Shown here: positions 1,795 to 34,495 of the stretch, piece after piece
How the letters are laid out: each line of letters opens with the position of its first letter
How positions within the stretch are numbered: the stretch's first letter is position 1
Program-made: the position numbers and the translations under genes
From: a virus
Direction: 5' to 3' (one strand)
DNA: 35,628 bases
IMG/VR virus record: IMGVR_UViG_3300009507_000051
Notes under the pieces: generated by a model
Database searches by the model: none
The model's input: only the letters and a program-made list of their open reading frames with translations
What the model was told of the DNA's origin: nothing

Positions 1795-3186
1795 ATGGCG
1801 ACAGTAACAGAATTAGTAACCAAATTTAGCTTTGTTGGAAGCCTAAACCCTCTAAAGAATTTCAGAAGCGGATTGGCTGGAGCTACAATAGGCACGGCAA
1901 AAATGGCTGCTGGATTGGCCGTGGCTGCTGGCTCGGCTTTAGCTTTTGGTAATGCAATAGCTCAATCACTAAAGCCATTAAACGTACTATCAAAGCAAAG
2001 TGGCGTAACAGTAGGAAATATACAAAAGCTAGAGTTTGCAGCGCTATCCACAGGAGCTAACATTGGATCACTTGAAATGGCATTGGAAAGCTTATCCCAG
2101 CAAGTAAACCAAACAGCATTAACAGGGCAGGGTACTTTAGTAGAAAGGTTAGGTCTTGGTGCTGAAGATTTAGAGAACTCTGAAACAGCATTATTCGGAG
2201 CTATACGAGCAATGAATGATATGGGATTTGATAGAAGACAGCGACTTGCTATAGCTGAAGAATTAGGCCTAGATGCATCACTAATAGGCTTGCTTGAATC
2301 AAGCAACCATGAACTTCAAAGAATGTCAAAAATAGCTGATGATATAGGATTTATAACGCCTGAGCAAAGCAAGGCGGTAGAAGAGTATACAAACTTAACC
2401 GCTACATTAGGCCTTAGTTTTAAGCGACTAGGTGAGCAGCTGGGAGTATCACTACTTCCTGCACTAAATGAAACGGCAGAATCTATGTTTAGTATTGTTA
2501 GATCTGTTGCTCCAGCTCTTAAGCGTGCTTTTGGTGTTATAAGCTTCGGTATCGTTACGGCTACTGATTTTATAAAAGATCATATAGGATTTTTAACAGT
2601 ACTTGGTGGAACCCTTCTTGCGGTTACGGCTGGCCCAATATTACTTGCAGCGGCGCTAGCATTAATACCAGTAGCTCTTAAGGCTATTTTAATAGCTCCA
2701 TTCCTGCTTGTTCTACAAGACCTTCACGTTGCATTTAATGACGGCAAATCGGTTATTGGTGACTGGGTAGAAAAAATGACTGGCATCGACCTCACCAAGG
2801 CTGGATCGGCAATAAAAGATCTGGCTGGAGATATTAGAAATATTTTAGGCGATGCTTTTGATTATGTTATAGAAAAAATTGAAGGATTATTCGGCTGGAT
2901 AGGAAAGCTAGGTAAAATTATAGGTGAAGACTTGGCAGAAAGTAGAATATCAGACTTGCAATCAACAGGCCAACTACCTACAGGTAATGAAGAGTTCTTG
3001 ACATACAGAGCAAGAAAGGCTTTAGAATCTAGAAACTCTGGCGGCGGATCTAACACTACAAACAATGTTACTGTTGAAGTCAATACGAATAAAGAAAGCG
3101 TCGCAGACGCAGCAGTTGGTGGCGTATACAAAAGATACGGCTCCGGTACATTAGAAGCTGAGCAAAACAGAAGGAGCGGTAGATAA
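1795..3186 (+). CDS. Tail tape measure protein
   Basis: 463 aa. The N-terminal half is Ala/Gly/Leu-rich and helical. A central hydrophobic block reads FLTVLGGTLLAVTAGPILLAAALALIPVALKAILIAPFLLVL. The gene sits directly after the chaperone frameshift pair. Confidence 0.8.
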   Translation: MATVTELVTKFSFVGSLNPLKNFRSGLAGATIGTAKMAAGLAVAAGSALAFGNAIAQSLKPLNVLSKQSGVTVGNIQKLEFAALSTGANIGSLEMALESLSQQVNQTALTGQGTLVERLGLGAEDLENSETALFGAIRAMNDMGFDRRQRLAIAEELGLDASLIGLLESSNHELQRMSKIADDIGFITPEQSKAVEEYTNLTATLGLSFKRLGEQLGVSLLPALNETAESMFSIVRSVAPALKRAFGVISFGIVTATDFIKDHIGFLTVLGGTLLAVTAGPILLAAALALIPVALKAILIAPFLLVLQDLHVAFNDGKSVIGDWVEKMTGIDLTKAGSAIKDLAGDIRNILGDAFDYVIEKIEGLFGWIGKLGKIIGEDLAESRISDLQSTGQLPTGNEEFLTYRARKALESRNSGGGSNTTNNVTVEVNTNKESVADAAVGGVYKRYGSGTLEAEQNRRSGR

Positions 3187-8178: not shown

Positions 8179-11004
8179 ATGTCAAAAATTTTAAGACCAA
8201 ATAAAAACATAGTTTCATTCTCATCTAAAGCGGCTACGGGCGAGCGTACAACGTTTAACACATCTAATGTGACTGATGACCTGTCTGCTAATATTAATAG
8301 CGACTACAAGCGCGGGTTTAAGGTTTACGGGCCGGATGAAGTACTGGAAATGAAAGACATGAACGCTTTCGCGTTTACCTTATCGGATCTTACTTCTTAT
8401 TTATTTCAGTCAGGTATTGCAGAATATGACTCACAGCAAGAGTATCATTTGAACCAAATGTGTTCAGAGGATGGCGTTATTTACGTATCTCTGCAAAATG
8501 ATAATATTGGTAACAACCCGGTTGGAGAGAACTCACTTTGGTTAAGTAATTCAAATACTGAAAACAAAGCGCCCTCTGCATCTACTGCGTCAATAAACGA
8601 CAATCAATTTGTTCAATTCGATTTATCCAACAATAAGTTGTTCTTGGTGGATGCTTCTGATGATAGTATATCTTATGTTAATTCTGAAGGCAGCGAGGTT
8701 GATGGCTTTATATCAAGTGATTTTTTATCTTATCAGTATACTACATCTGTCGATAATGTTGCGATGGGTTTTTCTGGTTTTGTTATAGCAGGTGAGACGA
8801 CTGTTGACGTTGGTGATAATCAATTCTTTTCTGTTATATGTGATACTAATATCAATGGAGAAAAAAAGCTTGTATTGTTTAACTCTTTAGGGTTCCCCGA
8901 TCCTGTTAGTATTCCTGCTTCATCTAATATTCAAGATGCAGAGATTGAAGGTTATTCAAATGCGTTTCCAACTTGTGCTGTTAAAGACCCAAGCTCAGAC
9001 ACAATCTTTGTTACTTATGGCTGGACTTTTGGCGCACCAGTATCAGAGCAGAATGCTTTTATCATAGCTTATTCTTTTGATAGAAATTCTGGTTTATTTA
9101 CTAAGGTAGGTAATAGATTTGATATTACTGCTAGTGGTGCTAATGATGGAAACGGACAGCCAATGTATAGCGGGTTTGTACCTAAACTAAATGGCGATGC
9201 TCAAATTGTAGACGTGTATGGAAATCTAATTTCTTTTAATGGCATTGATTTTTCTTATGAAGGTATTATTGATAGTTCAGCCATTGATTCGTCTCAATCA
9301 TTTTCTGTTACGTTTCCTTTTTCTGCTTGTGATTTTATAAGAGATGATATTATAGCGCTTAGAGGTGTTGGCCTACAGTCGTCTGATAGAACAGGGTTAA
9401 TAATAGCTTCTTATGATGAGGCGCTAAATACAGTATCAATACTGTCGGAAACTGACTTTGCCAATATAGGTGATGGTTCTGGGGATACTGAGGTTACTCT
9501 AAAAATACAGAGGGTTGGTGATTCTCAAGTGTACGTTTACGGATTAAATCATAAGTATGTATTAAAATTTGATAGTGAGTTTGAGGTTACTGCCATATCT
9601 GGTAACGTAGACGATCTCTTGCCAAGTGATGGAAGTTCCAATATAAAACAAGGTAGTGTTTTAGTATTGCCTAACAAGAATATACTAGCCGTACCGGAGT
9701 CAGGGACTGTTTTTTATACAGCAACTAGCGACTCAACATTTGCTCAATCAGTATGCTCTTCAAAGGGTGTTAGGGTTTTTGCAACTAACGGATCTAACAT
9801 ATTAGCTTATGATATAGATAGAGAAAACGGAACATTCACAAAGGTAGGGAATTCTCTTGAGTTATCAAGCCCTGATAATTCTGTTAGCTTGTGCTCTATA
9901 GTTAGTGATAACTTACCTAGCAACGGTACGCTGGATTACATCCTTGTTTATACAGATACGAACGGTGAGATTAATTGCTACTCATTTAATGGACTTAATT
10001 TTGAGTTTTACAAGCAGGTTTACACATCTAACATTACTGGCTTTAAAAGTCAGGTATCGAACATAAGTAGAAACGGAGATATTGTTCTATTTAACGATAG
10101 AGGAAGACAAGAGTTTGTTAGCCACTCTGTAAATACTGATGGTGACTTTGTTATTGTAAACAATGTATCTAGCAACTCTATTCACACCCCTAATCCCAAC
10201 ATAATAGGTGGGGTAGATGGTAACGTAGTAGCAACAAGTCAAGACGGTACGCTGCTTTATAATTATGATTTTACTTCAGCAGATCCGGAACTAACAAGCA
10301 TTCAAGAGCTAATGCAACCAGCGGTGGATGTTGTGGCACTTACGGAAGAGAATAGGATCGTATCGACTGGTTTTAATAACAGGCTTACTAGCTACAACTT
10401 GAGCTTTATCCCTAAAGATACAGCGTTTTGGCGCAGGCTTGATGGCGGTCAAAATTTATCATTTGATGGATCGGACATCGGAATTAATTCAACTAATATC
10501 AATGACGCAATTAAAGCTTTATTGACAGACGTTAGATATCCAGTTGGTGCTATACATATGAGCGCGGAAGACTCAAGGAACCCTGCGGAAATACTTGGCT
10601 TTGGTACTTGGCAAAAAATAGAAGGTAAATTTATTGTAGGTCACGATGGATCAGATTCTGACTTTGATGATGTTAATGCCAGTGGCGGCGATAAATCTCA
10701 CACGCACAGTGTTACAAGCGGTACAAGCGCGGTTAAGGTTAGCACTACAGTAAGTAGAAGTGACTGGGGCGCAGAGCAGACTGATGGCGTACTATCAAGC
10801 GGCTCAATACCTTCGGTAAGTGGTAGATTGGTCACAGGTTCTGGCAATAGCGAAAATGCAGAAAACCTAGAATCTCTGGGCCACGCATTTAATAATAAAG
10901 AACTGGAAAGTGATTTTCATAATCACGCAATAAACACAAATACAAATGAAGCTAGTAATCTACCTCCTTATTTGGCTCTTTACTTATGGGAAAGAATAGG
11001 GTAA
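8179..11004 (+). CDS. Tail fibre 1 (941 aa)
   Basis: The N-terminal 120 aa or so and the C-terminal 190 aa or so are paralogous to the next gene. The C-terminus has tail-collar-like motifs: YPVGAIHMS...NPAEILGFGTWQKIEGKF, GGDKSHTHS, HNHAI, NLPPYLALYLWERI. Confidence 0.8.
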   Translation: MSKILRPNKNIVSFSSKAATGERTTFNTSNVTDDLSANINSDYKRGFKVYGPDEVLEMKDMNAFAFTLSDLTSYLFQSGIAEYDSQQEYHLNQMCSEDGVIYVSLQNDNIGNNPVGENSLWLSNSNTENKAPSASTASINDNQFVQFDLSNNKLFLVDASDDSISYVNSEGSEVDGFISSDFLSYQYTTSVDNVAMGFSGFVIAGETTVDVGDNQFFSVICDTNINGEKKLVLFNSLGFPDPVSIPASSNIQDAEIEGYSNAFPTCAVKDPSSDTIFVTYGWTFGAPVSEQNAFIIAYSFDRNSGLFTKVGNRFDITASGANDGNGQPMYSGFVPKLNGDAQIVDVYGNLISFNGIDFSYEGIIDSSAIDSSQSFSVTFPFSACDFIRDDIIALRGVGLQSSDRTGLIIASYDEALNTVSILSETDFANIGDGSGDTEVTLKIQRVGDSQVYVYGLNHKYVLKFDSEFEVTAISGNVDDLLPSDGSSNIKQGSVLVLPNKNILAVPESGTVFYTATSDSTFAQSVCSSKGVRVFATNGSNILAYDIDRENGTFTKVGNSLELSSPDNSVSLCSIVSDNLPSNGTLDYILVYTDTNGEINCYSFNGLNFEFYKQVYTSNITGFKSQVSNISRNGDIVLFNDRGRQEFVSHSVNTDGDFVIVNNVSSNSIHTPNPNIIGGVDGNVVATSQDGTLLYNYDFTSADPELTSIQELMQPAVDVVALTEENRIVSTGFNNRLTSYNLSFIPKDTAFWRRLDGGQNLSFDGSDIGINSTNINDAIKALLTDVRYPVGAIHMSAEDSRNPAEILGFGTWQKIEGKFIVGHDGSDSDFDDVNASGGDKSHTHSVTSGTSAVKVSTTVSRSDWGAEQTDGVLSSGSIPSVSGRLVTGSGNSENAENLESLGHAFNNKELESDFHNHAINTNTNEASNLPPYLALYLWERIG

Positions 11005-11031
11005 AATAAATAAAAATTCTAAGGAATAAAA

Positions 11032-12837
11032 ATGGCTAAAATTAATCGACCTAATACAAATGTTAAGGCCTTCGCTTCGGAGGCCTTGGCCGGAGAAAGA
11101 ACAATTTTTGATGATTCTACATCGTCGGACGATCTTGCTCAAAACCTAAACCCTAGCTTTGCGAGAGGCTTTGGGGTTTTTGGCCCTTCTGAGTTTCCAA
11201 CATTAGAGGACTTTAATGGATTTGGTTACACAGCTACTCAGCTCGTATCATACCTGTATCAGCAAGGCGTTCCGGAATGGACACAGGCTCAGACTTACTA
11301 TAAAAACTCGTTAGCATCGGTTGACGGGCGTATTTTCGTATCATCTCAAAACGACAATACAGGCAATAACCCGGCTCAAGGAATTTCACAAGATTATACT
11401 AACTGGGAAGAGTCAAACCAAATATCAACGCCAGTATTATCATCATCTAAAATAACAAAGATAAATGATATTGGTTACCATGCAAAAGTTAATACTGATA
11501 ATACAATAACTATTTTTAGCGAAAAGGTTCTTATTAGTGATAATGAAACAGTTGTGGTATTGGATGAAGAGTTTTCTGATACCATTAATATGATCCAAAC
11601 AGGTGCTATGTATATAACTAGACTATCTGAAGATAGGATCGCGGTTATGACTCAGAGTGAGATCGGCGTTTATGATATCGATACTGACGCACTAACCGTA
11701 AACCAAGTAGGCTCAAAGCTTCCTTTGTCTTTAGTTACTGCTACTGATTACGATATTGTAGGACTATCCATAGCACCTACCACAACCAACCATATGGCCG
11801 TTTACAATGGTGATAATGGTAACATCCGTATTTATAGCTTTGACGGCTCTGCGTTCACTGACGAAGGCGTGAAGTACAGCGGACTATCTGGAAGAATACA
11901 GCTTGCAAAAACTTTATTTGATGGTAGTGACTTAGTGGCATACAGCAACTCTGTTCAAGAGATTTACAAGTTATCTTATAACGGAACCTCTTTCGACCTA
12001 GATGGTACTACATCTACCGCAGGCTTTGATTCTTTTAATACAATTAGTAGCGGAGAGCTTAATACTATTATTGCCTACAATGTAGGTGGAGCGAGCGCAA
12101 GGGTATTGTCTACGTCTGGATCTTCTATCTTTGAACTTGGTGTGGCGGTAGATACTTCACCAAACCTTATAACAGATGCTATACTTACTGGCGAAAATCT
12201 ATTGGTTATTAGTGATGCGGAAGATGCTGTCTCTCTTTATGTATCAAGTAATGGCGAGGCTGCTGGTAATTCATTCTGGCGACTATTGTCAGCCCAAGGT
12301 ATCGGGTTCGATGGCTCAGGTACAAACATAATGTCCAACAACGTTCAGGACGCAATAAAAGAAGTTGCAAAAGAGTTTATATATCCTGTTGGCGGATTGT
12401 GGATCAATAGAGTTGACGAAAGAAATCCTTCAGAAATCCTAGGCTTCGGCTCTTGGATAAAAGTAGAAGGTAGATTTTTAGCAGGTGATAGCTCTCTTGA
12501 CAATGACTTTAATGCTGGCACTACTGGCGGTAGTAAAAACCACTCTCACGAAGTTGAAGGTGATACGCAAAATGCCACTGTTACAACCACTATACCAAGA
12601 GATGGCTGGGGCGCTTTGCAGTCAGGCGGAAAGCTACCGGAACCAACTACTAGCGGTAGATTAGTAACAGGCTCAGGAGATACTGAAACATCGGAAGCCT
12701 TGGAGTCACTAGCGCACGCGTCTGGAGATAGAGATATTGATGCTCAACCTCACTCGCACACAATAGATACAAGCACAGATACTCAAAGCAACCTACCACC
12801 GTACGAAGTTTACTACGTATGGCGAAGAATCTCATAA
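11032..12837 (+). CDS. Tail fibre 2 (601 aa)
   Basis: It has the same N-terminal module (M-KI-RPN-N...GERT-F...NDN-GNNP) and the same C-terminal module (YPVGGLWIN...NPSEILGFGSWIKVEGRF, GGSKNHSHE, HSHTI, NLPPYEVYYVWRRI) as fibre 1. The centre is unrelated. Confidence 0.8.
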   Translation: MAKINRPNTNVKAFASEALAGERTIFDDSTSSDDLAQNLNPSFARGFGVFGPSEFPTLEDFNGFGYTATQLVSYLYQQGVPEWTQAQTYYKNSLASVDGRIFVSSQNDNTGNNPAQGISQDYTNWEESNQISTPVLSSSKITKINDIGYHAKVNTDNTITIFSEKVLISDNETVVVLDEEFSDTINMIQTGAMYITRLSEDRIAVMTQSEIGVYDIDTDALTVNQVGSKLPLSLVTATDYDIVGLSIAPTTTNHMAVYNGDNGNIRIYSFDGSAFTDEGVKYSGLSGRIQLAKTLFDGSDLVAYSNSVQEIYKLSYNGTSFDLDGTTSTAGFDSFNTISSGELNTIIAYNVGGASARVLSTSGSSIFELGVAVDTSPNLITDAILTGENLLVISDAEDAVSLYVSSNGEAAGNSFWRLLSAQGIGFDGSGTNIMSNNVQDAIKEVAKEFIYPVGGLWINRVDERNPSEILGFGSWIKVEGRFLAGDSSLDNDFNAGTTGGSKNHSHEVEGDTQNATVTTTIPRDGWGALQSGGKLPEPTTSGRLVTGSGDTETSEALESLAHASGDRDIDAQPHSHTIDTSTDTQSNLPPYEVYYVWRRIS

Positions 12838-17609: not shown

Positions 17610-17630
17610 TCAAAAAGGGGTGAAAGCCCC

Positions 17631-17659
17631 TTGACTTGTACAATAATATTATGTATTAT
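17631..17659 (+). promoter_or_regulatory. Promoter TTGACT-17-TATTAT overlapping the preceding hairpin
   Basis: The hairpin AAGGGG-TGAAAG-CCCCTT at 17615-17632 ends inside the -35 hexamer (17631-17636). The -10 is at 17654-17659. Confidence 0.5.
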
Positions 17660-17692: not shown

Positions 17693-18004
17693 ATGAAAGA
17701 ATATAAACAAACATTAATTGAAGTTCTACATAAAGAGTTTAAAGACCAAAACACTTTCTTTGATATCTTTGCAGGTAAGGGCCTAGCATCAAACACATTT
17801 GAGTGGGACGAAAAAACACTACATGCTACTATGACAATCCCAAAAGGCGTTAAAGATATTGTCGACGATAGCTTTGAAATATTCACAGATACCGTCAGAG
17901 ACTTTATGAAAACTAAAGTAGCGCCAGAAGGTATGACGTACAGGGTTAATACGTACGAGCGTAAGGGTAATCTAATTCTAAAACTAGAAGCAAAGGTGAA
18001 GTAA
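17693..18004 (+). CDS. Hypothetical early protein (103 aa)
   Basis: RBS AAGGTG. The stop overlaps the next start (TAATG). Confidence 0.6.
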   Translation: MKEYKQTLIEVLHKEFKDQNTFFDIFAGKGLASNTFEWDEKTLHATMTIPKGVKDIVDDSFEIFTDTVRDFMKTKVAPEGMTYRVNTYERKGNLILKLEAKVK

Positions 18005-18519
18005 TGAAAACAATGACAGGTAAAGCATTTGAACAAAGGTTCAAGCAAGCCTGCGATGAGCAAGGCGTATTAATTATACGTCTTCGCGATGCAGGTTACC
18101 AAGGCGAGCAAACATCTCAAAGACGTTTTACGATAAAGAACGTTGCAGACTGTATTGTATTCGACGGAACAAAGTTTGTAGTATGTGAACTTAAACACAG
18201 AAAAAGCTCACTGGCATTTAAAGACATATCTCAATATAAAGACATCAAAAAGATTAATGATTTTATTGAGAGCAATGGCATGCACAATGCGACAGCCGGG
18301 CTACTGGTATGTTTTGGCTCAATGGACAAGATATACTGGGTACATATTGCAATGATAGATGAGCTTAAACACATGACGAGCAAAAAGTCATTTAATTTTA
18401 AAGACTGCCAAAAGCTTGAGTTAGATCATCCTTTGATGTGCATGAAGGTTGATGCGATCATACCGCCGAGAAAGCGCACACAACGCATAGATACGAGCTT
18501 TATAGGAGATGCAATATGA
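18004..18519 (+). CDS. PD-(D/E)XK nuclease, RecU-like Holliday junction resolvase
   Basis: 171 aa. The motif VADCIVFDGTKFVVCELKHRK fits D...E-x-K. The N-terminal GKAFEQRF resembles the RecU N-terminus. Confidence 0.5.
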   Translation: MKTMTGKAFEQRFKQACDEQGVLIIRLRDAGYQGEQTSQRRFTIKNVADCIVFDGTKFVVCELKHRKSSLAFKDISQYKDIKKINDFIESNGMHNATAGLLVCFGSMDKIYWVHIAMIDELKHMTSKKSFNFKDCQKLELDHPLMCMKVDAIIPPRKRTQRIDTSFIGDAI

Positions 18520-18869
18520 TAAACGCAGTATTAGGCAAAGTTACTAACGGGCCGTCTGAGTGCGTTATTGTTGGCAAATATGACAGAGGGGTTTTTACTT
18601 ATAGTTCATCTTCATATTGTAATGGTGTGTTAGATGAGGAAAAGGATTTTGCAAATATATTTGAAGTAGAAGACTATCTTAATAAGTGGTTACCTACATC
18701 TAAACTTAAGGTTTATGATATGGTATCTATAACAAGAATTTTTGAAGATATTGTAAATGATAAAAGTTTTTGTGCTTTTGATTATTATCTTCAGATGTAC
18801 GATCATGTGGAAGAGGTGGTGGATATGATAAATAATCTAAAAGAATGCTATAAATTAAGATTAATTTAA
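18516..18869 (+). CDS. Hypothetical early protein (117 aa)
   Basis: RBS AGGAG. ATGA overlap with the upstream gene. Confidence 0.6.
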   Translation: MINAVLGKVTNGPSECVIVGKYDRGVFTYSSSSYCNGVLDEEKDFANIFEVEDYLNKWLPTSKLKVYDMVSITRIFEDIVNDKSFCAFDYYLQMYDHVEEVVDMINNLKECYKLRLI

Positions 18870-18877
18870 AAAAACAC

Positions 18878-18938
18878 TTGCAATCTAATTAAGATTATTT
18901 AATAATACAAATATGGAAGGCGGAAAGTCCGCCTCCAT
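18878..18938 (+). promoter_or_regulatory. Early-type promoter TTGCAA-17-AATAAT plus strong 5' hairpin
   Basis: -35 at 18878-18883 and -10 at 18901-18906. Hairpin ATGGAAGGCGG-AAAGT-CCGCCTCCAT at 18913-18938, with one bulged A. Confidence 0.55.
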
Positions 18939-18963
18939 TAACTAAAATATAAGGTATATTATT

Positions 18964-19188
18964 ATGAACACTCAAACAAATAACTCAAAACAAGTAGCTT
19001 TCCGTATGTTACCAGTAGACCAGCAAATCGCTATCACTAAGAAGCGCAAAGAGAAGCAAGACGCTGAAGCAAATGCAATTATAATGAAGCAGTACAAACA
19101 GCGCGTACTTAGTGAAGTACTAGCAGTATCTGCATTAATTATGACAGCTACCGCAACAATCATCCTAGCAATCAACGGAGTGGCATAA
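18964..19188 (+). CDS. Hypothetical small protein with a C-terminal TM segment (74 aa)
   Basis: Conserved leader ATAAGGTATATTATTATG. C-terminal sequence VLAVSALIMTATATIILAINGVA. Confidence 0.55.
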   Translation: MNTQTNNSKQVAFRMLPVDQQIAITKKRKEKQDAEANAIIMKQYKQRVLSEVLAVSALIMTATATIILAINGVA

Positions 19189-19189
19189 A

Positions 19190-19408
19190 ATGGACAACAA
19201 ACATTATGAAAATTGGGAGTTGTTATCAAGTGCTATTGATGGCAACAGAGCAACCATAAAGCGAATGGAAGATTTGTTTAAACAGAACCCTAAAGGGGTA
19301 GATTTGAATAAACTAATTAGCATGATCGATCATGCTAAAGAAGACACAAAGAAGCTTGTTTTAGCAGAAACTAGAATATTTGGAGGCCCTTATTCAGTGC
19401 ATAAATGA
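19190..19408 (+). CDS. Hypothetical small protein (72 aa)
   Basis: RBS GGAGTGG. The start is 1 nt after the upstream stop. Confidence 0.55.
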   Translation: MDNKHYENWELLSSAIDGNRATIKRMEDLFKQNPKGVDLNKLISMIDHAKEDTKKLVLAETRIFGGPYSVHK

Positions 19409-19439
19409 TATTATAGGGCATACCATTTTAGTAATTTAA

Positions 19440-19469
19440 AGGGTGATTTTTTATGAATCGCCCTTTTTT
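19440..19469 (+). terminator. Intrinsic terminator
   Basis: AGGGTGATT-TTTTATG-AATCGCCCT (one G-U pair) followed by a T-run. Confidence 0.65.
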
Positions 19470-19566
19470 GTGTTTTGGCGCTGGTGGCGTGTAAAAATGC
19501 TTGGCGAGGTGGATAAAGTCGTTTAAAATCAATGCTTAGGCAAAATAATACGTTTTGTGATATCAA

Positions 19567-19674
19567 GTGCAACGTTTTGTGACACCCTATATATATAGTA
19601 ATTGCAAAAACGTTGCACTTACTTAATTCGCTACGCTCACTTTGTTTTTCTTTTTTGTTGTGTTTCCATTGGAT
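19567..19674 (+). repeat. Structured intergenic element, copy 3 (truncated and mosaic)
   Basis: Inverted repeat 19567-19580 / 19604-19618. The G-poor block is diverged. The second stem-loop has collapsed to CCATTGGAT (19666-19674). There is no A-rich tract or GC hairpin. Confidence 0.8.
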
Positions 19675-19728
19675 TTGTCAACCTGATAGCTGTTTTTGAA
19701 ATTATTTTAATTTATTTATAAAAAAGAC

Positions 19729-19779
19729 TTGCAATGTGTTTGATATTTAGTTATATTAATAATGTACCAACGGGGTACA
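19729..19779 (+). promoter_or_regulatory. Early-type promoter TTGCAA-17-TATATT plus 5' hairpin
   Basis: -35 at 19729-19734 and -10 at 19752-19757. Hairpin TGTACC-AACGG-GGTACA at 19763-19779. Confidence 0.55.
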
Positions 19780-19809
19780 CAATATTAATTAATAAGAAGG
19801 TATACTATT

Positions 19810-20256
19810 ATGAACACTCAAATTACTAAAAACGAAAACACTGTTAGCTTTAAATATTTCAACCCTGTATCAAAATCGTTTGATGTATACTATATCAATA
19901 AGGAAAGTTTGGCGGCCACGTTAGTAACAAAAGATGGTAATGTTATCATCGCAACAGATAATTCAATGAAGCAAGTTATTTATTTTCACGACAGAGAATT
20001 TGCTACAGAGTTCGCAGAGTCATTAATGATACTTGCAGACGCTTCACCTGTTATGGTTAAATCATTCTTGGACGGAATCTTTTTCATCCGCCACAACTCG
20101 TGCCCTATGGTTATATGCAAACACCAAGGTGATTATTTTAATCTTATAATTACCATTAAGGGACACGATCAGAACTCAAAACACGGTTTGTTTGTGCAAA
20201 AAGTAAGAGTACAGACAGAGAAGCAAGCAGAATATTTAATCAACCAATTAACTTAA
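19810..20256 (+). CDS. Hypothetical early protein (148 aa)
   Basis: Conserved leader AAGAAGGTATACTATTATG. A GC hairpin (GGAGGGC-TAA-GCCCTCC, 20267-20283) follows the stop. Confidence 0.6.
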   Translation: MNTQITKNENTVSFKYFNPVSKSFDVYYINKESLAATLVTKDGNVIIATDNSMKQVIYFHDREFATEFAESLMILADASPVMVKSFLDGIFFIRHNSCPMVICKHQGDYFNLIITIKGHDQNSKHGLFVQKVRVQTEKQAEYLINQLT

Positions 20257-20305
20257 TTATTAAACAGGAGGGCTAAGCCCTCCATAATCACAAAGGTAAA
20301 ACAAA

Positions 20306-20554
20306 ATGAAAAACGCACTTAACCCAGTAGACCAACGAGCAGCCAACAACCTAAAGTCAATATGGCTACAACATAAAGAAAAAAGAAAAACAACTCAATC
20401 AGAGTTCGCGGAGTCAATTGGCATAAGTCAAAGCAAGTTTGCTTTGTACTTAAATGGCCACTACCCTATCTCTCTCAACAACCTCGTTTTCTTTGCTGAC
20501 GCATTAGACTGCAACTGCTCAGATATTCGACCAGAAGTAAAGGATAAAAGATAA
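20306..20554 (+). CDS. XRE-family helix-turn-helix regulator (Cro/CI-like, 82 aa)
   Basis: TQSEFAESIGISQSKFALYLNG matches the HTH_XRE pattern. Confidence 0.65.
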   Translation: MKNALNPVDQRAANNLKSIWLQHKEKRKTTQSEFAESIGISQSKFALYLNGHYPISLNNLVFFADALDCNCSDIRPEVKDKR

Positions 20555-20787
20555 TGGAATACAGTTTATTATTATTTGTTTGGCCAGTGGCATTGATATT
20601 AGCAATGTCATTAGGCGCAACCATTGGTATCGGAATCTACCACCTCATCCACCTCACCGCGTCAACGATAGTTGATTTAACTTGTAACGCATCAGGGGCG
20701 ATTAAACAGGAGCGAGGCATACAAGACGTACTCAACTCAATCCAACGCCACAGGCGCAAGCGAGAGCGCGAGAAGGGGCGATCATAA
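20554..20787 (+). CDS. Small membrane protein with an Arg/Lys-rich tail (77 aa)
   Basis: Two hydrophobic segments, then RHRRKREREKGRS. The start overlaps the upstream stop (TAATG). Confidence 0.5.
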   Translation: MEYSLLLFVWPVALILAMSLGATIGIGIYHLIHLTASTIVDLTCNASGAIKQERGIQDVLNSIQRHRRKREREKGRS

Positions 20788-20814
20788 TTCCCGACTATAA
20801 AGAAAGAATCTACC

Positions 20815-20838
20815 GCAAGCCCTTGATTTAGGGCTTGC
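20815..20838 (+). terminator. Hairpin (possible terminator) with TTGATT in the loop
   Basis: GCAAGCCC-TTGATTTA-GGGCTTGC. There is no clean T-run, so its function is uncertain. Confidence 0.35.
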
Positions 20839-20869
20839 TATAGCAATAAAAAACAAAAGGTATAAGATT

Positions 20870-21364
20870 ATGAACATATCCACAGAATTAAAAAAGCACG
20901 TATCAGGTGAGTTAAGTATGTACAATAACAACAATATAATAAATATTGTACGCAAAAGACTAACAAACAAAGCTAATGAAAAAATAAAACTAATGGCATT
21001 TAATGTTAATGCAGCAAGAAAGCACCCACTAGTATCAGAAGTTACTTACGGCGTGACTAGCTATCATGACGATGATGTCGAATACTCAACAACAAGAATT
21101 AAGGTTAAAGTTGAGTTAGATGAGTTTAGGACAATATACAATATAGAATGCACAGCCAACGTTTGCGATGAGCTGTGTAAGTATATGTCCGACAGATTCG
21201 GGCGGGATGGGTTTATACTTTCTAATGAAATTGTAAGCTTAAATAGTAAAGATGAGGAAAAGAGACAGATGATAATTGATTTATTAAGTAGATTTGAAAA
21301 AACCCAAGAACAACAACCATCCACCACGCCCCGAACATTCGGGGCTTTTCATTACCTAAAATAA
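20870..21364 (+). CDS. Hypothetical early protein (164 aa)
   Basis: RBS AAAAGG. A terminator hairpin is embedded in the last codons. Confidence 0.55.
   Translation: MNISTELKKHVSGELSMYNNNNIINIVRKRLTNKANEKIKLMAFNVNAARKHPLVSEVTYGVTSYHDDDVEYSTTRIKVKVELDEFRTIYNIECTANVCDELCKYMSDRFGRDGFILSNEIVSLNSKDEEKRQMIIDLLSRFEKTQEQQPSTTPRTFGAFHYLK
21328..21349 (+). terminator. Intrinsic terminator inside the 3' end of the 20870..21364 CDS
   Basis: GCCCCGAA-CA-TTCGGGGC followed by TTTT. Confidence 0.55.
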
Positions 21365-21377
21365 TTTAAAATAAAAC

Positions 21378-21432
21378 TTGTAAAAAAAAATAATATTAAG
21401 TATTATTAATAATAAGTAAGGGGAAAGGCCCT
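21378..21432 (+). promoter_or_regulatory. Early-type promoter TTGTAA-17-TATTAT plus conserved leader (cassette A)
   Basis: -35 at 21378-21383 and -10 at 21401-21406. The leader GTATTATTAATAATAAGTAAGGGGAAAGGCCCTGACCTAAAATAATATAAGG is nearly identical to the leader starting at 21786. Confidence 0.55.
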
Positions 21433-21460
21433 GACCTAAAATAATATAAGGACTAATAAA

Positions 21461-21760
21461 ATGAAATTAATATCCATAAGAATCCCAGATAATCACCACA
21501 CACCTAACACGCTAGAATCTACCGCAGGAACAGCCCTAAGGCTAATCAACGGCAGGATGGCTAACAAAGTACTGATACTACTACCAAAGGCTACGCCGTT
21601 GCGTGAAGAGCTTTTTGAGCACAATGAAAAATCAAGCGTAAAAATAATTGAAGGTTACGAGAAAGCGGCGGCGGTAGATGTTGGCGAGTTCGATCATGTT
21701 ATATATGGCCCCGGCTCGTTTAAAAGTTTTTATGAAATAATTAAAAGTAATTTAAAATAA
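21461..21760 (+). CDS. Hypothetical early protein (99 aa)
   Basis: The ORF follows the cassette A leader. RBS TAAGGA. Confidence 0.55.
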   Translation: MKLISIRIPDNHHTPNTLESTAGTALRLINGRMANKVLILLPKATPLREELFEHNEKSSVKIIEGYEKAAAVDVGEFDHVIYGPGSFKSFYEIIKSNLK

Positions 21761-21763
21761 AGC

Positions 21764-21818
21764 TTGTATTAATATCCGGTATTTAGTATTATTAATAATA
21801 AGGAAGGGGAAAGGCCCT
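21764..21818 (+). promoter_or_regulatory. Early-type promoter TTGTAT-17-TATTAT plus conserved leader (cassette B)
   Basis: -35 at 21764-21769 and -10 at 21787-21792. Leader: GTATTATTAATAATAAGGAAGGGGAAAGGCCCTAACCTAAAATAAATAAGG. Confidence 0.55.
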
Positions 21819-21846
21819 AACCTAAAATAAATAAGGTAAAAATAAG

Positions 21847-22317
21847 ATGAATAATTTAATAAACAAAATCCAAAGCCAACTAGGTAAAATCGGAACAAGA
21901 GAAAATGTTTTCGACATGCTAACAGCTGAAGAGCTTAAGGTTATCTTTATTAATAAAGAAATTAATCCAAATAATGGTTTGGCTCTTGAAGATGAGTTTT
22001 TAAACTGTAACGGCCAACTACTTGAGCAAATGACTGACTCAAAAAATTGCGACACTGATTATTTTCATGAATTATTATTAGACCATTTAGAAGATATGGA
22101 TAATTCTGAGATTATCAAAACATACACCGAACACATCAACGCAATTGAAGGTGGCGAAGTACTTAGCGATAAGATGTTTGATTTTGTAAACAAAGAAACA
22201 ACACAAGAAACACTTGAAGCTTACAACCTATATAGAGAGGTAGAGGCGGCGTTAGATGCTGACGTAATGAAAGCTATTGAAAAATACCAAGATAAAGCAC
22301 TAAACCTAATGGAATAA
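21847..22317 (+). CDS. Hypothetical highly acidic early protein (156 aa)
   Basis: By eye, roughly 35 Asp+Glu against 13 Lys+Arg. RBS TAAGGT. Confidence 0.6.
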   Translation: MNNLINKIQSQLGKIGTRENVFDMLTAEELKVIFINKEINPNNGLALEDEFLNCNGQLLEQMTDSKNCDTDYFHELLLDHLEDMDNSEIIKTYTEHINAIEGGEVLSDKMFDFVNKETTQETLEAYNLYREVEAALDADVMKAIEKYQDKALNLME

Positions 22318-22323
22318 AAACAA

Positions 22324-22341
22324 AAGCCCCGAAAGGGGCTT
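22324..22341. terminator. GC hairpin AAGCCCC-GAAA-GGGGCTT
   Basis: The A-run is upstream and there is no T-run downstream. It therefore looks more like a minus-strand terminator or an RNA 3' stabiliser. Confidence 0.4.
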
Positions 22342-22362
22342 AAAAAATAAATAAAATAAAGC

Positions 22363-22391
22363 TTGACATTAAGTTCACTTAATATTATTAT
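22363..22391 (+). promoter_or_regulatory. Promoter TTGACA-17-TATTAT upstream of the packaging and head operon
   Basis: The -35 at 22363-22368 is consensus. The -10 is at 22386-22391. Confidence 0.6.
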
Positions 22392-22422
22392 ACTTATAAC
22401 ATATAAATACCTTATACTTTTA

Positions 22423-22446
22423 CCCCTTACTTGTAAGGGGTTTTTT
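22423..22446 (+). terminator. Intrinsic terminator in the leader between the promoter and terS
   Basis: CCCCTTA-CTTG-TAAGGGG followed by TTTTTT. It lies about 25-50 nt downstream of the expected transcription start and 57 nt upstream of the terS ATG. Confidence 0.7.
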
Positions 22447-22502
22447 ATTGATTAAATTATTATAACGTGATAAAATAAAAGAAACACTTTGAGGTTATAA
22501 AG

Positions 22503-22979
22503 ATGACAAATAAAAAATCAACCGCAACAGACAAACCGAAGGTTACTAAAAGAGTAACAAAGGGCAGGCCAAAAGCTACTAAGAAGATAGCAAGAGGAAA
22601 GCCAGAACACAAACCAACCAAAGCAAAGCGCGACACGGTAGCTATGCACGCTATGGTAGGCACGCCGCAAGAAGATATAGCCAGAGTATTAGGCATCGAC
22701 CCCAAGACGCTCAGAAAGCATTACAGGGACGATCTAGACCTAGCAACAGCTTCAGCCAATGCCGACATTGGTGGAGCGTTATATAGGCAAGCAATTGATG
22801 GCAATGTATCAGCACAAATATTTTGGCTCAAGACTCGCGCAGGCTTTAGAGAGAAGAGTGAAGTAGATTTGACAAGCTCAGACGGTTCAATGACGCCTAC
22901 AGGCTTCGACATTAACTTTATAGAGGCCAAAGCGCCCGATGTGGAAGATGATGACGATAACGGCAAGCACGACTACTAA
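22503..22979 (+). CDS. terS: Terminase small subunit
   Basis: 158 aa. Basic N-terminus, HTH-like segment TPQEDIARVLGIDPKTLRKHY, the motif AQIFWLKTRAGFREK, and an acidic tail. It lies directly upstream of terL. Confidence 0.7.
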   Translation: MTNKKSTATDKPKVTKRVTKGRPKATKKIARGKPEHKPTKAKRDTVAMHAMVGTPQEDIARVLGIDPKTLRKHYRDDLDLATASANADIGGALYRQAIDGNVSAQIFWLKTRAGFREKSEVDLTSSDGSMTPTGFDINFIEAKAPDVEDDDDNGKHDY

Positions 22980-26518: not shown

Positions 26519-26577
26519 TTGCAAAATAACAGTCATAGTGTTAAACTGTTGACTATGGCAAAAAAAACATATATAAT
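26519..26577 (+). promoter_or_regulatory. Two tandem sigma70-type promoters (TTGCAA-17-TAAACT and TTGACT-17-TATAAT) for the head operon
   Basis: First promoter: -35 at 26519-26524 and -10 at 26542-26547. Second promoter: -35 at 26549-26554 and -10 at 26572-26577. Confidence 0.55.
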
Positions 26578-29267: not shown

Positions 29268-29276
29268 TAATTTTAG

Positions 29277-29312
29277 AAAGTCCTTGACAGGGCTTTCTTT
29301 ATTTACTATAAT
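29277..29312 (+). terminator. Terminator hairpin whose loop is the -35 of a consensus promoter (TTGACA-17-TATAAT)
   Basis: The stem AAAGTCC (29277-29283) / GGGCTTT (29290-29296) has the loop TTGACA (29284-29289). The -10 TATAAT is at 29307-29312. Confidence 0.6.
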
Positions 29313-29347
29313 TTAGCTGTATTAATTCATAATATATACCTCACTTC

Positions 29348-29385
29348 AAAAGCCCCTTGACGGGGCTTTTTCTTTATGTTATAAA
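29348..29385 (+). terminator. Second terminator hairpin carrying a -35 in its loop (TTGACG-17-TATAAA with an upstream TG)
   Basis: AAAAGCCCC-TTGAC-GGGGCTTTT with a T-run. -35 at 29357-29362, TG at 29377-29378, and -10 at 29380-29385. Confidence 0.6.
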
Positions 29386-33435: not shown

Positions 33436-33486
33436 TTGCATTAGTTGTTTTATTGAGTTATATTAATAATATGACAATAAGTCATA
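33436..33486 (+). promoter_or_regulatory. Early-type promoter TTGCAT-17-TATATT plus 5' hairpin
   Basis: -35 at 33436-33441 and -10 at 33459-33464. Hairpin TATGAC-AATAA-GTCATA at 33470-33486. The -10 region AGTTATATTAATAAT matches the promoter at 19729. Confidence 0.55.
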
Positions 33487-33511
33487 TAAACTTTATAAGA
33501 AGGTATACATT

Positions 33512-34495
33512 ATGAGTATTTTAAAAAAGAAACAAAAGACAAATGAAGAACTGAAAAACGAAGCGTTGAGCTACAGTGTTGATGAGCTTAAGGCAAAAGC
33601 GCAAGGTGCAAAAAAAATGTCTGCATTGAAAGGCGGACTTATTATAGCGCTATCATTGTGTTCATTATTATTTTCTTACACTCAATTCCAAGAAGCTATG
33701 GTCTGTAAGGGTATTTGCGCGGTAGATGTTAATGAAAGTATGATTAAAACAGGCTGGGCAAAAGGTGAGCAACAAAAAGAAGAAACAGTTTGGGTGGTTG
33801 ACTATAAAGGAAACTACACTCAACAAGAATCTATTTTATTTAGAATGAAACTGGATAAAATCGCAGCTATATCAAAAACAGGTGATGGCCTTATTATCAA
33901 TATCGAAAGTAACGGCGGTGATGCTATTGCATGCGCTAACGATTACGATCGAGTAGTTAAGATGCGAACAATGCATGGCCTTAAGGTTTCAGCAGTTGTT
34001 GATAGAGCAGCACACTCTTGCGGATATTATCTAGCATCTGCCGCAACATCTATCTACGCTCAGAAAGGCGCAAGCGTTGGTAACATTGGATCGGCTATGA
34101 CAATGATGACAAACCCTATTCAAGCACTGGTTAAAAAAGTAACAGGCGCAGAAGTTATTGTTATTGGCTCTACTCGTGCAAAAGAAATATTTGCTGGATC
34201 ACCACTTAAGACAAAGGAAGATCACGCCATTGTCAAAAAGTACGTAGACGCAGGTGCTAAAAACTTCTTTATGGACGTTATTAAAGGACGAGCTGGACGC
34301 ATTAACCCTAAAGATTATCCTACTGTGTTTAGTGCATACCCATTCTCGGCACGTCATGCAAAACAACTAGGCCTTATCGATGGTTTCGCAAGTATCAGCG
34401 AAATACTTCAAGGCTATCACGCCAACGGATACACAATCAAACGCATCACTATAAACGATGTAGCAAAAGCAAGTAAGCAAGTATTTGTAGGATAA
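33512..34495 (+). CDS. Membrane-anchored S49-family serine peptidase (SppA / SohB-like)
   Basis: 327 aa. N-terminal TM segment: GGLIIALSLCSLLFSYTQF. ClpP/S49-like core: INIESNGGDAIACAN...AAHSCGYYLASAATSIYAQKGASVGNIGS. The Ser sits in the position of the SppA nucleophile motif. Confidence 0.65.
   Translation: MSILKKKQKTNEELKNEALSYSVDELKAKAQGAKKMSALKGGLIIALSLCSLLFSYTQFQEAMVCKGICAVDVNESMIKTGWAKGEQQKEETVWVVDYKGNYTQQESILFRMKLDKIAAISKTGDGLIINIESNGGDAIACANDYDRVVKMRTMHGLKVSAVVDRAAHSCGYYLASAATSIYAQKGASVGNIGSAMTMMTNPIQALVKKVTGAEVIVIGSTRAKEIFAGSPLKTKEDHAIVKKYVDAGAKNFFMDVIKGRAGRINPKDYPTVFSAYPFSARHAKQLGLIDGFASISEILQGYHANGYTIKRITINDVAKASKQVFVG

Follow-up and report, generated by a model that had tools for sequence, protein, structure and literature searches.

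The closest described counterparts of the locus considered here are the promoter-early stem-loops (PeSLs) of T4-type phages, in which a strong sigma-70 promoter with an AT-rich upstream tract is combined with a stem-loop of the GGGG/CCCC kind (Arbiol et al. 2010, PMC2839356; PMC4122927). The stem-loop, for which positions 5′ of the promoter, within it and 3′ of its -10 element are all possible, ends upstream transcription and has been proposed to keep early transcription from the late virion genes, and the elements border ORFans in hyperplastic regions (PMC2839356). The locus itself is found in the IMG/VR virus record IMGVR_UViG_3300009507_000051, all 35,628 nucleotides of which were analysed (hereafter, the window), directly before the packaging gene terS. 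A preliminary description of positions 22,363 to 22,502 had read the locus as a promoter running into a terminator, with either a Q-type antitermination switch or a tiny RNA as the outcome. In the model favored here with moderate confidence, the sequence where the early ORFan region meets the packaging operon would instead represent a PeSL-like junction of stacked terminator and promoter, in which an intrinsic terminator, T, is followed by a second promoter, P2 (22448-22476), located between T and the ribosome-binding site (RBS) of terS and overlooked in that description.

The junction between the early region and terS

The elements of the junction are as follows, with promoter scores given as matches out of 12 to a sigma-70-type consensus; ORF stands for open reading frame, TIR for translation initiation region and SD for Shine-Dalgarno sequence.

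22324..22341, minus strand: H0, hairpin AAGCCCC-GAAA-GGGGCTT just after the ORF156 stop codon (dG -12.5)
22340..22362, plus strand: A/T-rich UP-like tract TTAAAAAATAAATAAAATAAAGC, belonging to repeat families D6/D7 and common, by alignment, to the early promoters 18878, 21378, 21764 and 33436
22363..22391, plus strand: P1, early-type sigma-70 promoter TTGACA-17-TATTAT (11/12; predicted +1 at ~22398)
22397..22421, plus strand: anti-TIR spacer, whose reverse complement AAAAGTATAAGGTATTTATATGTTA equals an early-type SD and ATG (minus-strand reading ATG-TTA-TAA)
22398..22447, plus strand: predicted ORF-less transcript of ~50 nt, with 24 unpaired nt, the terminator hairpin and a U-tract, and with no ATG
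22422..22446, plus strand: T, intrinsic terminator ACCCCTTA-CTTG-TAAGGGGT plus T-run, at the boundary of the early and packaging regions
22448..22476, plus strand: P2, TTGATT-17-(TGa)TAAAAT, proposed packaging-operon promoter (9/12; repeat family D9)
22491..22979, plus strand: terS, with RBS GAGGT (22491-22495) and ORF (22503-22979, 158 aa)

The features named in the preliminary description were all recovered, namely P1 (-35 TTGACA at 22363-22368 and -10 TATTAT at 22386-22391), the hairpin and T-run of T, and, after the terminator, the RBS of terS and its ATG at 22503. The hairpin of T (22422-22441) has an 8-bp stem with 4 G-C pairs and a folding energy of -10.4 to -10.9 kcal/mol, and the 24 nt directly 5′ of it are predicted to be unpaired. 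The anatomy of a promoter, a ~50-nt transcript lacking an ORF and an intrinsic terminator had been described correctly, and among 3000 shuffles of the 185-nt gap, 16 contained a comparable promoter and 5 a comparable terminator while none contained both in that order. Across the genome, 7 promoters scoring at least 11/12 were observed vs 1.7 +/- 1.5 in dinucleotide shuffles; the arrangement goes beyond chance. A riboswitch or an attenuator was ruled out, since no alternative fold competing with T (antiterminator, riboswitch or attenuator) was predicted in the leader and no Rfam family matched in the window at gathering thresholds.

P2 begins directly after the T-run, with a predicted start ~20 nt before the terS ATG. 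It was grouped by the repeat finder with the promoters 13230 and 34962, each of which precedes a further late unit (family D9), and the alignment of the three contains an invariant TATTGA...TA-AAT. The junction was also found in one syntenic relative, a 39.5-kb contig (L279) that carries a homologue of the helicase gene and whose proteins are identical to those of the window at 63% for portal, 54% for terL, 70% for terS, 48% for the helicase, 60% each for the Holliday junction (HJ) resolvase and a small helix-turn-helix (HTH) protein, and 49% for an S49 peptidase. In L279, the end of the coding region is followed by AAAGCCCC-TAAC-GGGGCTTT, a T-run, ATTGACA-17-TAAAAT and ~28 nt with an RBS, and then by the start codon (ATG) of a ParB/methyltransferase gene directly adjoining terS-terL-portal. 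The positional counterpart of T in this contig (8664-8688) has a different stem sequence, but hairpin, T-run, -35 and -10 come in the same order as in the window and at distances that match to within ~2 nt. A layout that is kept while the stem sequence changes is the pattern expected of a functional terminator-promoter junction. Promoter-like sites also lie immediately 5′ of the packaging operon in two more distant portal relatives: L295 has a hairpin and TTGAAT-16-TAAAAT before its ParB/methyltransferase-terS genes, and L292 has TATTGACT before terS. No promoter was found within ~170 nt 5′ of the terminator of L279, and scanning of both strands of L279 and of another relative, L282, revealed no promoter-to-terminator units. 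Judged by these comparisons, P1 is specific to this phage, and the conserved feature is T together with P2.

In the proposed model, T would act as the boundary terminator, halting rightward early transcription from the promoters P19729, P21378, P21764 and P1. This stopping would fall to T and not to H0, because H0 lacks a U-tract on the plus strand; it is terminator-shaped on the minus strand only (tail TTGTTTTTAT), its plus-strand side being followed by A6. P2 would restart transcription right after the T-run, making the terS-terL-portal-MuF unit independent of T. P1 would be a further copy of the repeated early promoter, which, being placed 30 nt before T, would give rise to a terminated orphan RNA of ~50 nt, and the P1-T interval would be what is left, in inverted orientation, of the start of an early-type gene, with its 5′ hairpin, SD and ATG. 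The orphan unit would most likely have arisen by cassette turnover or inversion in the hyperplastic region; the ORFan status of ORF156 just upstream, the different cargo at its place in L279 and the relocated S49 cassette, all described below, fit such cassette shuffling. Sequence and comparison establish the elements, their membership of repeat families, the T-P2 layout of the one syntenic relative and the homology to inverted TIRs; the activity of the promoters, the efficiency of T and the status of the short RNA as a by-product are what we infer from this arrangement. The model implies that a promoter reading into a terminator before terS can come from two stacked terminator-promoter cassettes, with the late operon having a promoter of its own.

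It has to be noted that several points weigh against this model. P2 by itself scores 9/12 only, and its support consists of one syntenic relative, two more distant loci and internal paralogy, while the host is an inferred one, and so are its promoter and terminator rules. Moreover, a promoter of consensus type that retains its UP-like tract intact would be unlikely to persist if it were useless, and the odd promoter-into-terminator unit is present twice in the genome, which together argue for some function of the short RNAs.

The surroundings of the junction offer a number of further observations. The gene of the ParB-N/N6-methyltransferase kind abuts the 5′ side of terS in L279, L284, L286 and L295, as it does in an unrelated lambdoid-type phage (L082), and is absent in the window. 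In L279, positions 8469-8661, after the S49 gene and in another frame, hold a protein-like frame of 64 codons (..EDPDDEEYRKSPEEFYQYCLEWINERVEE..) with no ATG, GTG or TTG until 8544, which may result from a frameshift or an indel of the assembly, or from a start of an unusual kind; an 87-aa minus-strand ORF adjoining the terminator there was rejected, its translation being junk and the plus strand being protein-like. The G/C hairpins at 22324-22341, 17615-17632 and 20267-20283, each after a plus-strand gene, have U-tracts on the minus strand only and resemble minus-strand terminators with no minus-strand gene to end. TerS (158 aa) carries a Lys/Arg-rich N-terminal extension of ~35 aa (22503-22610) that is absent in nearly all relatives (108-137 aa, homology beginning at residue ~31-36). 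In an upstream scan of 80 terS loci, which relied on crude start-codon picks and non-syntenic loci and was not used as evidence, L047-L049 alone had a promoter leading into a terminator upstream of terS. These are unrelated, higher-GC phages (terS 48% identical) with TTGACA-17-TAACAT and then GGGCCGCAGG..CTTGCGGCTC plus T6, the unit spanning ~125 to 26 nt upstream of terS and ending in a strong terminator ~26 nt before it.

As for the genome, the first 123 nt of the window equal the last 123 nt, indicating a circularly closed contig of ~35.5 kb (~38% GC). Tail and baseplate genes occupy 1-13.6 kb and are followed by two minus-strand genes, one of them for an HNH endonuclease, by the gene of a large helicase-type replication protein, by ~4.7 kb of small early ORFs (17693-22317) and, rightward of these, by terS, terL, portal, MuF-like, protease or scaffold, capsid, sheath and tube genes. 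The structural module is of the E217/Pa193 type and the genome is not T4-like; the identities of terS (phrog_309), terL (PF04466/PF17288) and portal (PF06381) were backed by family matches, and no tRNAs were found in the window. Megablast against phage records gave no close relative, the nearest terL being 42% identical among phage records and 51% in IMG/VR, and the terS relatives are mosaic, mostly residing in unrelated higher-GC phages. Single-protein IMG/VR scans with the helicase and ORF156 as queries returned no match, and three more distant helicase relatives (L288, L289 and L290) do not include a terS junction. The last of these, scaffold 12 of Vibrio agarilyticus SM6 (10001-12356, 29% identity), was the only member of the helicase family recovered from 185,579 species genomes. 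Another assembly, from an ENA metagenome, is 100% identical across 3477 nt, and no sequence variants were present in 90% protein clusters. Named matches of terS and the helicase in metagenome-assembled genomes belong to Oleiphilaceae, Bermanella and other Gammaproteobacteria, with Devosia as the one exception; the host is probably a marine gammaproteobacterium.

P1, the early-promoter family and the inverted gene starts

The upstream tract of P1 and its core, AAAATAAAGCTTGnnn-17-TATTAT, are common to the promoters 18878, 19729, 21378, 21764, 33436, 15168 and, on the minus strand, 14829, and P1 has AAAATAAAGCTTG...TATTAT in common with the early promoters. The early-promoter repeat families D3, D5, D6 and D7 comprise at least 7 copies, each with a hairpin; a pattern scan of IMG/VR for the early promoter motif gave single chance matches only. 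By its sequence, P1 is an early-type promoter and not a unique late promoter. In the genuine early units, the -10 is followed after 8-12 nt by a short 5′ hairpin without a T-run, by the TIR ATAAGGTAT(N)ATTATGAA and by the ORF, a design also used in L279. Near-identical TIRs (ATAAGGTAT..ATTATGAA) occur at 18951, 19797, 20857, 33500, 15230 and 14757 (minus strand) of the window and at 3185, 7462 and 3505 of L279, the early TIR having been kept between two phages whose proteins are merely 30-60% identical. Two promoter-leader cassettes, 21358-21465 and 21744-21851, located 5′ of ORF99 and ORF156, are tandem duplicates (81% over 108 nt).

ORF156, which lies just upstream of the junction, is an ORFan with 0 homologues among 5.8 billion proteins, and tblastn of ORF99, ORF156 and ORF164 against L279 gave no match. 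At the place of ORF156, L279 carries S49-peptidase and methyltransferase cargo. The S49 cassette is situated at 33436-34495 in the window, between the tube and chaperone genes, and at 7478-8488 in L279, directly upstream of the packaging junction; its different sites in the two genomes are evidence of cassette relocation.

When both strands of the whole genome were scanned for terminators preceded, at no more than 70 nt, by a promoter scoring 10/12 or higher, two units were found, P1-T and one running from 29284 to the terminator at 29348-29370, which is part of the following feature.

29275..29385, plus strand: sister unit after the major capsid gene, comprising a hairpin with TTGACA in its loop and TATAAT at 29307-29312

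In the sister unit, a 35-nt anti-TIR spacer precedes the terminator, the loop of which forms the -35 of the next promoter (TTGACG-17-TATAAA). The reverse complements of both spacers align with the starts of early-type genes, hairpin position included. For 22397-22421, 22/25 positions agree with the 18964 TIR and 25/31 with the 15243 (helicase) TIR; for the 29316-29351 spacer, the agreement is 16/17 with the 18964 TIR and 19/22 with the HNH TIR. The mean top-3 alignment score of the two spacers, 29.0, was reached by none of 2066 other genome windows (maximum 25.3). Both units read, on the minus strand, an SD, an ATG, one codon and TAA (ATG TTA TAA at 22394-22402; ATG AAT TAA at 29322-29330). 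A direct paralogy of the two short units was considered and rejected, their alignment being unconvincing and the count of the ATACCTYA motif being at chance; the two are alike because both are inverted TIRs. Each spacer fits the stump of an inverted early cassette left behind by a rearrangement in a genome that shuffles its cassettes.

The same evidence can be read differently, as indicating that P1-T is a small RNA (sRNA) gene whose ~50-nt product pairs in trans with the SD-to-AUG regions of early genes (18964, 19810, 20870, 33512, 15243 and the minus-strand HNH gene), damping their translation, with a second such RNA coming from 29284-29348 and both born by inverted duplication of the 5′ untranslated region of a target. 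This reading is unlikely. The predicted plus-strand RNAs begin 2-9 nt before the anti-AUG, cross the anti-SD and reach the terminator, the consensus promoter sitting exactly at the start of the complementarity in both of the only two such units of the genome, both of which have inverted-TIR spacers with a score unmatched in the 2066 windows. RNAduplex energies with the early TIRs are -12.8 kcal/mol for P1-T and -16.9 kcal/mol for the sister unit, which rank #12 and #2 among plus-strand 24-mer loci, and the seed complementarity is above background, shuffled seeds doing as well in 8/300 and 2/300 cases, respectively. The hairpins of both orphan units bear A/T-runs, which turn them into plus-strand terminators and which are absent from the ordinary early 5′ hairpins, and in the P1 RNA a 24-nt seed predicted to be unpaired is followed by the 8-bp hairpin and U6. 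The early TIR motif ATAAGGT..ATTATGAA is kept in L279, and a precedent exists in StxS of Stx phages, a short terminated RNA that acts in trans as an Hfq sRNA by pairing with an RBS (PMC7547250).

These arguments are countered by the absence of both units from L279, in which the post-capsid junction consists of a single promoter overlapping a terminator, and by the fact that a vestigial inverted gene start accounts for the complementarity equally well. Almost every TIR of this phage can be paired by an anti-SD joined to an AU-rich tract, and a repressor of early genes that is itself transcribed from an early-type promoter requires an additional argument about timing. No Rfam family matched the P1 RNA; in E-value mode only sub-threshold matches were returned (best MicF, 28.7 bits vs a gathering threshold of 79, and AgvB, 20.5 vs 56), which are those of the generic 'AU-rich stretch plus terminator' kind of sRNA. 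It is a tentative and unlikely proposal that two sRNAs of ~50-60 nt (~22398-22447 and ~29319-29376) might shut down early translation while they accumulate, by pairing with the shared SD-to-AUG sequence of the helicase, ORF74, ORF148, ORF164, S49 peptidase and HNH genes. Were it true, each sRNA would have been born from an inverted duplicate of its target site, lodged between a consensus promoter and a junction terminator that was already in place, and the two, if functional, would be a compact case of phage sRNAs aimed at a shared early RBS.

Antitermination and other readings

According to the preliminary description, transcription from P1 would stop at T before the whole packaging and head operon, following the logic of lambda PR′-tR′. 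In such a scheme, P1 would be the late promoter, and a processive antiterminator of the phage, whether Q-like, N-like or RNA-based, would overcome T to allow expression of the packaging and head genes. A strong P1 is indeed followed by a canonical terminator at +25 to +49, a -10-like TATAAA at ~+6 to +11 might serve for sigma-dependent pausing, and the many early ORFs with no assigned function leave room for a new factor. The scheme is nevertheless improbable. T does not stand between all promoters and the late genes, since P2 lies downstream of it, at a position kept in L279, which has no P1, and further consensus promoters are found inside the late region at 26549, 27725, 29284, 29357 and 34962. 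A Q-type checkpoint is unlikely because of these three observations, the downstream P2, the absence of P1 in L279 and the five additional late-region promoters. P1 belongs, moreover, to the repeated early-promoter family, the TATAAA falls within the inverted TIR, in an AT-rich region, and ORF156, which adjoins the junction, is absent from L279. Of the two outcomes put forward originally, the tiny RNA is still plausible, while the Q-type switch and its lambda-like logic are not borne out.

The search for a candidate antiterminator points in the same direction. The earlier finding of no recognisable Q or N homologue holds for Pfam, PHROGs and NCBIfam, and no match to Q, N or a sigma factor was obtained for the early ORFs in these or in PDB sequence searches, in which ORF156 and ORF164 gave no match at all; nor did the three family databases return any other antiterminator family for an early ORF. 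The sole recognisable regulator among the early ORFs is an 82-aa Cro/C1-type HTH protein. The conserved early ORF148 (19810-20256; 1849-2307 in L279 and 14988-15488 in L282) always adjoins the small gene of this type, and its AlphaFold2 model, of good quality (predicted local distance difference test score, pLDDT, 83.6), shows two beta-sheet-plus-helix repeats. Compared with the PDB, the model gave nothing significant (best E 0.045, template modeling score, TM, <=0.34), and ORF148 was rejected as a hidden regulator on that ground; its weak matches include PUR-alpha repeat structures, none of them significant. In cases of this kind, the sequence just 3′ of the terminator and the relatives of the phage call for inspection ahead of any proposal of a new antiterminator.

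A further reading places the functional unit on the minus strand, where an RNA of ~140 nt would start after TATAAT at 22464..22459, contain the 5′ hairpin 22441..22422, an SD and the mini-ORF ATG TTA TAA, and end at H0 (22341..22324 plus U-tract), either opposing P1 as a convergent transcript or being antisense to the P1 RNA. It would explain why H0 is a canonical terminator on that strand only, with no minus-strand gene to account for it, and the order of -10, hairpin, SD and ATG matches that of genuine early units, including the minus-strand HNH unit. The promoter, however, scores 8/12, with 2/6 matches in the -35 and no UP-like tract, and the ORF has just 2 codons; the sister unit (29275-29385) lacks a minus-strand terminator, and the T-run beside T is kept in L279 in the plus-strand sense. 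This reading is very improbable, and H0 and the minus-strand hairpin, SD and ATG are treated here as the outline of a collapsed minus-strand unit, that is, as history and not as present function.

Least probable is a DNA-level element, in which the hairpin region would be a pac or cos site for TerS, or a binding site for another protein, and the likeness to promoters and terminators incidental; packaging sites often lie within or just upstream of terS, and TerS of the window has its unusual Lys-rich N-terminal extension, but the assembled contig is circular and lacks defined ends, and conservation with L279 of the hairpin/T-run/promoter layout rather than of the stem sequence indicates a transcription or RNA signal and not a sequence-specific DNA site.

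Comparison with known systems

The T4 proteins RegA and RegB shut down early mRNAs post-transcriptionally via a shared SD or TIR sequence. If the pairing proposed for the two short RNAs were correct, a set of early genes would likewise be shut down through a shared SD or TIR, and the locus would constitute an RNA-based counterpart of RegA/RegB early shut-off; the difference is that the effectors in T4 are proteins, no homologue of which was found in the window, whereas the effector here would be an RNA. The oop unit of lambda, 77 nt in length, has its own promoter and intrinsic terminator and is cis-antisense to the overlapping cII message. The P1-T unit resembles it in being a tiny dedicated unit with a terminator and an RNA complementary to phage mRNA, but the complementarity here is predicted only, and would operate in trans, to a repeated TIR motif. 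With regard to size, the RNA predicted in the window (~50 nt) compares to 194 nt for lambda 6S and 74 nt for processed StxS (PMC7547250).

The likeness to lambda PR′-tR′ consists of a strong, constitutive-looking promoter, a nearby intrinsic terminator before the late genes and a short RNA as the default product. The locus differs from the Q-dependent system in that the window has no Q homologue and has a conserved promoter downstream of the terminator, P1 being one of a family of early promoters and the P1-T arrangement being absent from the syntenic L279.

The stacked-junction model brings the locus closest to the PeSLs, with which it shares the repeated intergenic sigma-70-like promoters with an AT-rich tract and an adjacent G/C stem-loop (families D3, D5, D6 and D7), as well as an ORFan (ORF156) and a replacement of cargo relative to L279 at the junction. 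In contrast to the phages in which PeSLs were described, the phage is a 35.5-kb one with an E217/Pa193-type module and not T4-like. Its two stacked cassettes lack an intervening ORF and are separated by an inverted early TIR. By analogy, the junction would work like the PeSLs, but outside the described set, which belongs to T4-like myoviruses and for which recombination or the formation of mini-circles has been demonstrated. The kind of junction is already known; what is new is the stacking of cassettes with an inverted early TIR as the interval, an arrangement present twice in this genome. Under this model, PeSL-style cassettes and the turnover of ORFans that goes with them would reach beyond T4-like phages and include a small, unrelated phage of the myovirus type.

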